A stretch of DNA of 64,000 nucleotides from Escherichia coli (GTDB lineage: Bacteria; Pseudomonadota; Gammaproteobacteria; Enterobacterales; Enterobacteriaceae), in the NCBI RefSeq assembly GCF_030013595.1, contig NZ_CP122772.1; one strand, 5' to 3'. Made by a program: the position numbers. Shown here piece after piece: positions 18,001-21,000 of this stretch (positions within the stretch are counted from its first letter, which is position 1; each line of letters starts with the position of its first letter).

Positions 18001-21000
18001 ATGGTAACTGCGTGGGTGGATGTGGCTGATAATGCCGTAAAAATAGGTTTGGGGTCGTTGTTGACTATTTTAGGGGGGGCTGACTCTTAAGCTAACACAA
18101 AAGCACGAATTAAAAAAAGAAGCGGCAGTACAGGGATTAAAAGATAAAGAAATAAGTCAGGTTTAGCCATAAGGAAAGCAGCATTTAAACTCCAGTTTGA
18201 TGTTTCTACTTTCATTTTCTACAACAAAATACACGACACAGAACTCATTAATGCACTGAGGGATAAGGCTAGAAATTCTGTTTCCATGTTTCAGGCCATT
18301 GTGAATGAGGAAATCTGCAACGGAAAGTTTGGCACAGCAAGCCAGTAGCGCAGGACAGAATAACCTGTATGTCAGGTGATGCAGGAAATCTTATTCAAAT
18401 TATCTGGTGCGGTCGCAGCTGATAAAGGCGTTGGCCAACGCGCTCGATACAAAGCCGGCGTTTAGATGATTGGTTATTTTACAGTGAGTTATGTCATTTC
18501 TGCCGAGGAGAATATTGGTGAGTTTTTTTGAAAAATATCACAGTACGTTAAAGGGCAGGAAGCGGTTCACTTCCTGCCCTTAGTTACGTTTCCGCTGTCA
18601 TCAGTCGATGAACTGGCGAATCAGTTCCAGAATTGCAATCAGCGCGTTCGCAACGGCGACTACAGCCCTGAGAACGATGATTAACAGATTAATCATCCGT
18701 TTCTCCAGTAAAACTGGAGGAAATCACCGTTGCTTACTCATACACTGCCTGTCACAACGGCTCTCTCGCATTGTTAGGTGTAGAGTGACCTCCTCCTGCC
18801 AGAGCACCGAATACAGCACCACCTGTTTATCCAGCCAGGACTTTAAAATCGTTCATACCCGCAGATACGGGAAGAGCAGGATTACAAGCCAACTACATGA
18901 CTAACTGACTGATTATACGCTACACAAAACACCCGTTACACAACTAAATGTGGTTCCTTAACCACATTTAGTTGCTTTACAGCACCATAGTGAATAAAAT
19001 GTAAACGTTAGGTGTAGAGTAACCTTCTCCGGTCAGAGCCACCAACTCAAGGCCGGAAAGCACAAAAAAGCCCGATTACCAGTCGGGCTTTTTTGTACCT
19101 GTCATTCAACTGAACTAATCTCAATAAAGATGCATCCAAGAGAGATTTTTATTTGGATTCGACGTTAATATCTACACAGAGGAATTTGTATTCAGGATTG
19201 TTTATTTCAAAATGTACTTTATGCTCACCATCAGGAAATAGATTTGGATTACGTTTACCAATTGAACGAATTATTTCGTTAACTTTTTCCTTAATAAGAT
19301 CGCGTGATAAATCCTCATTAAAATCTTCTTTTTTTATTCCCGGAATTATTTCCTTATAAAAATCTTTGATTATTTCCCCTCCTATATTTACTTCATAATC
19401 AAAAGATATCTGTAGAGGTCCAGACATGGTTAGTGTTTTCTTCATTGTTGTCTCTCCCGTGTTGAAATCTAATCCTTGCACTGTACAGTGCAATACATCT
19501 AAAGCCCGTACATTATTAGGCTTTAGATGTATCAAAGTTATTTTACTAGATAATTGATTTTTATCAACCATGCCCAACAAACATTCAAAGTATAACCAGA
19601 TAAGCTGGCTTTTGACATAGCCAACTATCTGACTTACTATATAAACGCTGGATATTGAGATTCATTCTCCGGTCAGACAATCAACTCAGAACCGGAAAGC
19701 AAAAAGCCCGATTATCAGTCGGGCTTTTTTTTGCTTTTATCGTTAAGCTGCACTACTAACGCGAATATTTCCTGCATTCGATGCGGAATGTACTTCAATA
19801 TCATTAAGAACACCAATTGGATATTCTGTTTGATTAAGCATTATTTCAACATCATGTCCACATTCGCATTCATCTTCAAATTTCATCCAGATCTCCCGTT
19901 TTAAACCCGAAGAACAATTTTCTGTCTCTTCCCAAACATCAAAATCACTTAAATTAATTTTATGTTCTTTTTTACAACTACTGCACATATACAAAACCAT
20001 GCTCATTTTACTCACCATATATTTTTATCAAAAAAATTAATAATTATGGCACTATCTGAAGACTGACAAACCACCCCTGGTTAATCGGATGCTTCAGACA
20101 TGCCATTGGATATTATATGGAGAACAAGGGATAATCAACTATCGCTACTTTTTGGAGGTAAATTCAAACCCTAATTTTCCTGTTGCTTTATCAAGCAATT
20201 TAACTTTAGCCGAAAATTCTTTATTCGTCCTGGAACTAACAAACCCTTTTAACTCTCCTGTAATACCTTTTGTTAGCAAGGTTTCTACTTGCTTGTCAGA
20301 AAGCTCCTTGCCAGAGAAGTTCTTCCAGATTTTAAATTCACATCCTGTACAGAAATAACCTTTTGGCCTGATAGCAATCTGCTTACCACAGGAAGGGCAG
20401 GGAGCATTCAGGCGTTGAGATTGGCCTGCTGGCGCTGCTGCTTCAATCTTCATCTCGCCCAGGTCAACATCTATAATCATGCCGCTCAGTTCACTGTAAA
20501 GCTCATTAATAAACTCTTCAACCGTCAGATCACCATTTTCAATAGCAGCCTGTTTTTCAGCCCATAATGCTGTCATATCTGGATTAACAGCTATATCCGG
20601 CAGAGCATCAATAAGCGCATATCCGGTATCTGTCGGAATGAGTTTTCCTTTTTCCAGCGTGATATAATTTCTCTTCTTCAACGTTTCCAGAATCGCTGCA
20701 CGGGTAGCTGGTGTACCAATGCCGCCATGTTCATCTTTTTTGTCTTTATCTTTATCCTTCAACAATTTTTTAATCGTTGGGTCAGTGACAAAATCCGCGA
20801 CACGAACAAGCGCAGCAAGCAAGGAGGCTTCAGTAAATAATGGCGGCGGTGTCGTTTTTTTCTCATTAACTACAACTTCTTTTGTCGTCAGTGTTTCTCC
20901 TGTGCGAACTTTACAGAGTAGTTCAAAAGCGGAATCATCGTTATCTTCTGATTCACCTTCGTCTGTGGTTTCCGCACCAAGAAATGCCTCAAATCCGCTG

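Follow-up and report, generated by a model that had tools for sequence, protein, structure and literature searches.

We interpret the locus at positions 18553–19732 of a 64,000-nt stretch of plasmid DNA from Escherichia coli (contig NZ_CP122772.1, assembly GCF_030013595.1; the whole stretch is referred to here as the window) as a DqlB-AgrB type I toxin-antitoxin (TA), or addiction, module. In this interpretation, to which we assign a probability of about 85%, one small RNA (sRNA1) is the cognate antitoxin of the toxin gene dqlB, and a second (sRNA2) is the remnant of a module of another specificity class (class 2), likely to be an inactive or weak orphan. The DqlB-AgrB core of the locus is an already known system, dql having been named in 2016 and plasmid addiction demonstrated in 2025.

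The original prediction, made from the sequence alone, had described a “DinQ/TisB-like” toxin, and all the sequence features that it named were recovered at the positions given. Its 31-codon hydrophobic open reading frame (ORF) is present at 18601–18696 on the minus strand, and the encoded peptide matches the NCBIfam model NF041473, “DinQ-like type I toxin DqlB”, over its full length (residues 1–31 on profile positions 1–31) with 72.4 bits against a cutoff of 35. The DinQ model NF041472 gives only 25.1 bits, under its cutoff of 30, and the site homologous to the K-12 LexA box retains 4/6 core bases. Neither trait of dinQ proper, a LexA box over the promoter and a hidden Markov model score above the DinQ cutoff, is therefore found here, and we file the locus as dqlB, not dinQ. 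Hence the “DinQ-like” half of the description holds, supported by both NCBIfam DqlB and Rfam AgrB, but the “TisB-like” half does not, as only the DinQ and DqlB models match. The definition of the dql family, whose members dqlA and dqlB occur on chromosomes and plasmids, dates from 2016 (PMC5066626), and 3,310 of 15,775 typed plasmids have been found to carry dqlB homologues (PMC12365149). A 1,261-bp region comprising the locus is 100% identical in many E. coli plasmids, where RefSeq calls the ORF dqlB (WP_000609147.1). The window peptide shares 29 of 31 residues with that of an IncX3 plasmid (L129, pKSH203-NDM) and 25 of 31 with that of a pOXA-48-size IncL/M plasmid (L131).

The elements of the toxin gene and of its antitoxin are as follows.

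18601–18696, minus strand: dqlB coding sequence, a 31-residue hydrophobic type I toxin MINLLIIVLRAVVAVANALIAILELIRQFID (ORF list, NCBIfam NF041473).
18912–18917, minus strand: −10 hexamer of the dqlB promoter, a perfect TATAAT, conserved across loci and without an overlapping LexA box.
18697–18905, minus strand: dqlB 5′ untranslated region (UTR) of about 208 nt, its start near 18905 being predicted from the TATAAT.
18773–18805, minus strand: sRNA1 target site in the dqlB UTR (29/33-nt repeat of sRNA1).
18703–18720, minus strand: Shine-Dalgarno (SD) stem-loop CCUCCAGUUUUACUGGAG with GGAG in the 3′ arm (RNA folds; aligns with the dinQ SD stem-loop).
18551–18581, minus strand: 3′ hairpin or terminator of the dqlB mRNA, GC-rich, 12–14 bp (terminator-like scan and mRNA fold).
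19006–19095, plus strand: sRNA1, an AgrB-type RNA with a single-stranded 5′ tail, a stem-loop and a terminator (Rfam RF02891, fold).
18972–19000, plus strand: predicted sRNA1 promoter TTGCTT-17-TAAAAT, read from the sequence and unflagged by the consensus scan.

Comparison with related loci places the dqlB transcript within the dinQ/dql mRNA family (Kristiansen et al. 2016), with its homologous long UTR, conserved blocks, SD stem-loop and 3′ hairpin. Plasmid dql loci for this comparison were gathered individually; a scan of a 596-Gb genome collection with the AgrB core 16-mer CAGAGCCACCAACTCA had proved too short a query, nearly all of its 120 loci being chance matches and the real ones only Escherichia/Shigella chromosomal loci (L022, L075, L085 and three more). 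The dqlB mRNA aligns along the whole UTR with K-12 dinQ and with dql loci of IncX3, IncX4, IncX5, IncX7 and IncI plasmids. Within an alignment of seven loci including K-12 dinQ, the blocks AAAGTCCTGG, GGTGGTGC, GTGCTCTGG..GGAG and GTGACAGGCAGTG are conserved, as is the SD hairpin, and the sole hypervariable block is exactly the sRNA target. The sequence flanking the 3′ hairpin, block AACGTAACTAAGG, is also kept in K-12 dinQ. The alignment to K-12 dinQ, agrA and agrB, proposed originally as a check, supports the dinQ-type reading.

The long leader of roughly 200 nt, the 3′ hairpin and the burial of the SD sequence in a hairpin, all part of the original prediction, were likewise recovered. The SD hairpin of dqlB comprises 7 bp (CUCCAGU/ACUGGAG), with the GGAG in its 3′ arm lying 6 nt ahead of the AUG; taken in isolation it is no more stable than shuffled sequences (z −0.75). 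At the same position dinQ has a comparable hairpin (CUCCAU/AUGGAG), and the SD stem-loop of dinQ is experimentally supported (PMC5066626). The fold of the whole dqlB mRNA has a z-score of −4.5, and in the predicted fold of the full-length mRNA the first 20 nt are paired with the sRNA target region. Furthermore, four candidate switch elements, CCUGCUCUUCC, GGCAGGAGGAGG, CCUCCAG and CUGGAG, can be read in the dqlB mRNA.

On the opposite strand, the two predicted sRNA units with paralogous bodies both belong, at full length, to the Rfam AgrB family RF02891 (gathering score 40). sRNA1 matches at 19008–19095 (88 nt, 64 bits) and sRNA2 at 19648–19732 (85 nt, 56.2 bits), and each folds into a stem-loop followed by a Rho-independent terminator (z −5.6 for sRNA1, −3.5 for sRNA2). 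The consensus structure of the AgrB-type sRNAs contains five pairs with compensatory changes. The geometry of the sRNA1 promoter matches that of K-12 agrB, and the K-12 agr promoters share this layout. The sequence at 18773–18796 of the toxin UTR recurs at 19007–19030 of sRNA1 with 2 mismatches in 24 nt, as had been noticed, and the repeat in fact extends to 29 of 33 nt, where the chance expectation is 0 matches. Since the first 33 nt of sRNA1 repeat 18773–18805 of the toxin UTR, sRNA1 and the toxin mRNA, transcribed from opposite strands, are complementary.

The specificity of this pairing was examined with a duplex matrix of the first 34 nt of 13 AgrB-type sRNAs against nine toxin UTRs. Cognate duplexes between sRNA tail and UTR dominate the 13 × 9 matrix, with predicted energies of −41 to −62 kcal/mol, whereas non-cognate duplexes mostly lie between −22 and −44 kcal/mol and reach the cognate range only for relatives of the same specificity (L004 and the IncX5 loci). 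sRNA1 forms a predicted duplex of −52.9 kcal/mol with the window dqlB UTR, −44 to −46 kcal/mol with the same-class L004 and IncX5 UTRs and about −31 to −36 kcal/mol with dql/dinQ UTRs of other specificity; sRNA2 reaches only −22.6 kcal/mol on the window UTR. In the same matrix K-12 AgrB pairs with dinQ at −58.2 kcal/mol and K-12 AgrA at −42.7 kcal/mol. Cofolding with a shortened dqlB mRNA gave ΔΔG values of −28.6 for sRNA1 and −3.4 for sRNA2, and a duplex scan of the 64-kb window with sRNA1 picked out the dqlB UTR at −41.5 kcal/mol as its sole above-chance match. sRNA1 is thus the pairing partner of the dqlB UTR, and the pairing is predicted to be cognate-specific. Moreover, across incompatibility groups the peptide is nearly invariant while the sRNA seed and the UTR target co-vary, which gives comparative support to an antisense mechanism. 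The pattern also suggests that AgrB-type antitoxins fall into orthogonal specificity classes.

For sRNA2, the relevant features are these.

19647–19732, plus strand: sRNA2, a diverged AgrB-type orphan of the class-2 specificity group (Rfam RF02891).
19612–19640, plus strand: sRNA2 promoter TTGACA-17-TACTAT (scan, 10/12 matches), homologous to the sRNA promoter of the class-2 locus L005.
19589–19618, minus strand: promoter-like site ATGTCA-18-TATACT (scan), homologous to the class-2 dqlB toxin promoter.
19149–19571, minus strand: ORF WP_001398192.1 (annotation), in place of the class-2 toxin and outside the TA module proper.

As originally stated, no partner for the 5′ region of sRNA2 exists in the 64-kb window, where its strongest non-self duplex reaches −27.3 kcal/mol against −28.3 ± 1.5 kcal/mol for shuffled controls, and a pattern search of the window for its targets gave nothing above chance. 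Two inverted matches (19643–19656/21378–21391 and 19653–19667/19112–19126) were considered as targets and rejected, lying on the wrong strand for the topB and ORF mRNAs and being attributable to chance. A partner for RNAs of its type is found on other IncX4 plasmids. The 5′ tail of sRNA2 (GCUGGAUAUUGAGAUUC...) occurs in only 87 PLSDB records, and on the IncX4 plasmid NZ_CP070012.1 the only sRNA beside dqlB (WP_032233319.1) is of the sRNA2 type (GUUGGAUAUUGAGAGUC...); the UTR of that dqlB contains the matching GTTGGATATTGAGAGTC, and the locus has the divergent promoter pair seen at 19589–19640 of the window. A sequence nearly the same as 19589–19618 also lies ahead of dqlB in L005. The window and the IncX4 plasmids L006, L007, L008 and L130 retain the class-2 promoter pair and sRNA, but past about 25 nt of the old transcript the class-2 toxin and target are swapped for ORF 19149–19571. 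To judge from these sequences, sRNA2 belongs to the antitoxin type that serves a second specificity class of dqlB, one carried by other IncX4 plasmids, its toxin having been lost here.

sRNA2 has, in addition, drifted from this class. The class-2 dqlB UTR is its closest toxin UTR, and the predicted duplex is −36.2 kcal/mol compared with −48.4 kcal/mol for the cognate pair; the class-2 allele shows five seed mismatches to the window sRNA2. A search of PLSDB and of 5,426 complete E. coli genomes with a chimeric UTR query yielded no dql UTR that fits sRNA2 more closely than the class-2 allele does. By growing distance from the class-2 cognate (L005), the variants fall into the order L006, then L008, then the window: L008 has a 1-nt deletion in the inner stem, and the window sRNA2, which has lost one inner stem pair through a 1-nt deletion, adds a further seed change. 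sRNA2 is also the most diverged segment of the module, with 13.8 differences per 100 nt against 0.5–2 for most other homologous segments, the other exceptions being 3.9 towards topB and 7.7 in the adjoining sRNA2 promoter. The most economical reading is that sRNA2 is an orphan, decaying paralogue, most likely inactive or weakly active and comparable to the chromosomal AgrA; the sequence makes a weak case for its activity.

These observations can be assembled into a model that draws on the dinQ/dql system, for which mutually exclusive UTR structures, agrB-induced SD sequestration and RNase III cleavage have been described (PMC5066626). The dqlB gene would be transcribed leftwards from its perfect −10 element, with no LexA box, into an mRNA of about 360 nt. 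By analogy with dinQ, the full-length transcript would be translationally inert with its SD held in the stem-loop, and 5′ processing would free the UTR segment GGAGGAGG to pair with the CCUCC anti-SD and so open the SD. The divergently made sRNA1 would use its single-stranded 5′ tail, some 33 nt long, to pair with this same part of the UTR, 18773–18805, sending the SD back into the hairpin and probably triggering RNase III cleavage, which would correspond to the rescue seen with the homologues. The presumably membrane-damaging, toxic 31-residue peptide would consequently be made only once the plasmid and its presumably short-lived sRNA are lost (the half-life is an assumption of the post-segregational killing model). 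sRNA2 would not serve the window toxin; it appears to be what remains of a class-2 module that is complete on some IncX4 plasmids, in which both divergent promoters and the sRNA survived, an unrelated ORF took the place of the toxin and target site, and seed and stem changes were probably gained later.

The window belongs to an IncF conjugative plasmid, with tra genes, finO, IncFII repA and CopA, very similar to E. coli plasmids from pig and cattle. The module lies in a segment (17006–21548) that contains a PemK/MazF-family ORF, dqlB, the sRNAs, two unknown ORFs and a 5′-truncated type IA topoisomerase gene, bounded by perfect inverted copies of an IS91-type insertion sequence (IS). Its gene order from dqlB to the topoisomerase gene is that of the IncX4 backbone, and the segment is, on this gene order, an IS91-flanked IncX4 fragment within the IncF plasmid. 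The perfect inverted repeats measure at least 452 nt (16554–17005/21549–22000), with arms extending further, and bracket the 4.5-kb IncX4-derived segment in the fashion of a composite transposon; 410-residue transposase ORFs lie at 15363–16595 and 21959–23191, and three more 410-residue ORFs occur elsewhere in the window. Inside the segment, by the left IS end, 17034–17133 (minus strand) matches Rfam RNAI, the ColE1-type replication antisense RNA (72.9 bits), which suggests a ColE1-like replicon fragment. The PemK/MazF-family toxin ORF at 17338–17811 (minus strand; Pfam PF02452, 50.7 bits) had no adjacent antitoxin ORF that was noticed in the ORF list or the annotated region.

sRNA2 is flanked by two minus-strand ORFs, 19149–19571 and 19743–20018, neither of which has a significant match in Pfam, NCBIfam, PADLOC or PHROGs. 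The first follows the class-2 toxin promoter that has been retained, and 14-bp arms (19493–19506/19519–19532) form a perfect inverted repeat in its leader or the 5′ part of its coding sequence. The second has CxxC...CxC motifs; other IncX4 plasmids have hns and hha at the corresponding position. In the strain E. coli ETEC6335 (pig faeces, Netherlands; L136 NZ_CP122596.1, L137 NZ_CP122592.1), a 100% identical copy of the window locus lies on a 120.8-kb plasmid, and the strain also holds an IncX4 plasmid with a class-2 dqlB, the specificity class of the orphan sRNA2.

A second type I locus, absent from the original prediction, is found at 31290–31600 of the window. Its 27-residue ORF MIDKAIIVLGALISLLELIRYLLQLMG (31336–31419, minus strand) matches NCBIfam DinQ NF041472 with 55.5 bits, and its UTR runs directly into a third AgrB-type RNA body and terminator (31496–31583, 70 bits) with no promoter region between. 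This compact form looks like a deletion through recombination between UTR target and sRNA repeat, which would remove both promoters, and it covers ≥80% of the query in at least 307 PLSDB plasmids. Another IncF-type plasmid, L004 (NZ_CP169756.1), carries two tandem dqlB genes (2533–2628 and 3451–3546), the first of which has lost its UTR and is fused to terminator-like sequence, together with an extra degraded AgrB match 2.4 kb away (6314–6400, 46 bits). Duplication followed by decay of dql modules appears to be common.

Several observations weigh against our interpretation. Folding by minimum free energy and by partition function leaves the SD paired whether the dqlB mRNA is full-length or 5′-shortened, and processing-dependent SD opening is therefore not reproduced. 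The toxin and sRNA1 promoters score under the threshold of the consensus scan and were read off the sequence, the simple promoter scan flagging only that of sRNA2 among the sRNA and toxin promoters. The module sits in a foreign context, on an IncF host plasmid that has other maintenance systems. For sRNA2, the near-consensus promoter and intact terminator would be needless in a decaying gene. Moreover, its excess divergence relative to L007 coincides with a recombination boundary, the next ORF also differing there, and for this reason is no clean evidence of relaxed constraint.

The preserved promoter and terminator would instead suit a role in which sRNA2 is a working anti-addiction antitoxin directed at class-2 DqlB from IncX4 plasmids that are rivals or share the same cell, allowing host and plasmid to survive IncX4 loss. 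Class-2 dqlB is the best predicted partner of sRNA2 among the toxin UTRs compared, the L006 variant pairs with the class-2 UTR at −43.2 kcal/mol, near the cognate value, and ETEC6335 combines the identical window locus with a class-2 IncX4 plasmid. We nevertheless consider this role unlikely: the −36.2 kcal/mol of the window sRNA2 equals the non-cognate background, contiguous pairing spans 12 nt against 17 nt in the cognate duplex, extra seed and stem changes separate it from L006 and L008, and the single co-occurrence in ETEC6335 is anecdotal. By analogy, AgrA, at −42.7 kcal/mol against −58.2 for AgrB, does not repress dinQ (PMC5066626). Equally doubtful is the broader proposal that orthogonal AgrB classes exist alongside plasmids keeping toxin-less antitoxins of a rival class, with sRNA2 disarming class-2 DqlB of IncX4 in shared pig hosts of enterotoxigenic E. 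coli (ETEC). A different challenge comes from the IS91-type copies and the truncated topoisomerase gene, which would fit a module that is wholly a functionless passenger on the IncX4 fragment, its toxin silent or harmless in the window plasmid. The crippled DinQ-type locus persists widely, and therefore dead type I loci can hitch-hike. Yet the −10 element, UTR, SD hairpin, ORF and terminator, and sRNA1 with its promoter and terminator, are all intact, and these functional elements differ little or not at all from the native IncX4 version; as loss of sRNA1 alone would be lethal if the toxin works, toxin and sRNA1 would persist as a pair. We regard the passenger explanation as improbable.

Homology to dinQ also raises the question of whether dqlB is an SOS-induced, LexA-regulated stress toxin like its chromosomal counterpart, not a constitutive addiction module. 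In agreement with the original prediction, there is no LexA box at the dqlB promoters: the site homologous to the K-12 box AACTGGATAATCATACAGTA reads AACTGACTGATTATACGCTA, having lost the CAG half and keeping 12/20 consensus positions overall in addition to the 4/6 core bases already mentioned. A weak CTG-N10-CAG motif does exist at 18821–18840, and for a near-identical site in pTF2 a heterology index of 11.64 has been calculated (PMC12211044). However, this motif also matches only 12/20 consensus positions and lies inside conserved blocks of the UTR, approximately 65–85 nt downstream of the predicted transcription start, and DqlB went undetected in the proteomics of the same pTF2 study, which therefore offers no evidence of induction. 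SOS regulation is accordingly very improbable, and constitutive dqlB transcription, which an addiction module would be expected to show, fits better.

One further element lies between the divergent promoters.

18941–18974, no strand: perfect palindrome with 15-bp arms (18941–18955 and 18960–18974) and a 4-nt spacer (−19.8 kcal/mol, z −7.0).

This palindrome, which is as perfect as first described, lies upstream of both predicted starts, its right arm overlapping the sRNA1 −35 element. It is kept, with 13-bp arms, in the IncX4 loci L003 and L007. Unrelated palindromes occupy the same place in the dql loci of IncX7 (L132 1120–1160; GCAATAGCTTG A CAAGCTATTGC, 11-bp arms around TTGACA) and IncX5 plasmids (L135 1090–1130; CAGTTGACA ACTTG TGTCAACTG, 9-bp arms, TTGACA in both directions), and none was found at the corresponding place in the IncI, IncX3, class-2 IncX4 and K-12 loci. 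The window holds no copies of the half-site besides the two arms, and hence there is no hint of a regulon. The palindrome could serve as an operator, or represent two −35 elements in symmetric arrangement.

ORF tracks routinely overlook small type I toxin genes and their sRNAs, which in this case account for about 1.2 kb of plasmid DNA that looked empty. A role of DqlB-agrB in stabilising resistance plasmids has been validated, and an IS91-mobilised copy in a pig ETEC IncF plasmid bears on plasmid persistence. What may be new to the literature is the second sRNA that lacks a toxin and belongs to another specificity class, along with the co-variation of seed and UTR across incompatibility groups; both matter for the question of how plasmids sharing a host escape, or take advantage of, cross-talk between their addiction modules.

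Among known systems, the original prediction had compared the architecture to dinQ-agrAB and to zorO-orzO, and the layout agrees with both. The zorO-orzO and zorP-orzP pairs of E. coli O157:H7 are tandem paralogous loci whose sRNAs are not interchangeable. Like the window locus, they consist of a toxin with a long 5′ UTR and a divergently transcribed, trans-encoded sRNA that pairs with this UTR. The sequence family, in contrast, is that of dinQ and unrelated to zorO: the window locus has no ZorO-type peptide and reaches only 20.5 bits (gathering score 60) with the Rfam OrzO-P model, on the wrong strand. The UTR mechanism of zorO has been described (PMC5397157). Membership of Sok and OhsC was rejected on Rfam scores far under the gathering thresholds, and that of TisB-IstR on the lack of a TisB family match in NCBIfam and Pfam and of an IstR match in Rfam at E ≤ 10.

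In K-12 dinQ-agrA-agrB, as in the window locus, two tandem paralogous sRNAs are encoded on the strand opposite the toxin, and one of them fits the UTR well (AgrB there, sRNA1 here); the UTR blocks, the SD stem-loop and the 3′ hairpin are also homologous. The K-12 locus differs in having a LexA box over the −10 element and a 27-residue DinQ-type peptide in place of the 31-residue DqlB type. The order of the sRNAs is also reversed, the well-matching one being proximal in the window, where a 430-bp ORF separates the two, and sRNA2 stems from a different specificity class and is no close copy of sRNA1, unlike the K-12 pair.

The closest functional precedents are the plasmid systems reported in 2025. 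DqlB of pOXA-48 (IncL) is toxic, is rescued by agrB and kills upon plasmid loss (PMC12365149), and the locus of the IncX3 plasmid pOXA-484 is toxic, rescued and plasmid-stabilising (PMC12317039). Both belong to the same peptide family as the window locus and share with it the long UTR and a divergent, trans-acting sRNA whose 5′ tail repeats approximately 33–35 nt of that UTR. The pairing sequence, and hence the specificity class, of the window locus differs from both. The sRNA of the pOXA-48-size IncL/M plasmid (L131), inspected by eye, is without the AgrB-type first stem-loop and has no Rfam AgrB match at E ≤ 0.01. Furthermore, the window locus has a second AgrB-type gene, whereas the IncX3 study found no agrA-type partner (PMC12317039), and, unlike pOXA-48 and pOXA-484, it carries its module on an IS91-flanked IncX4 fragment within an IncF plasmid.

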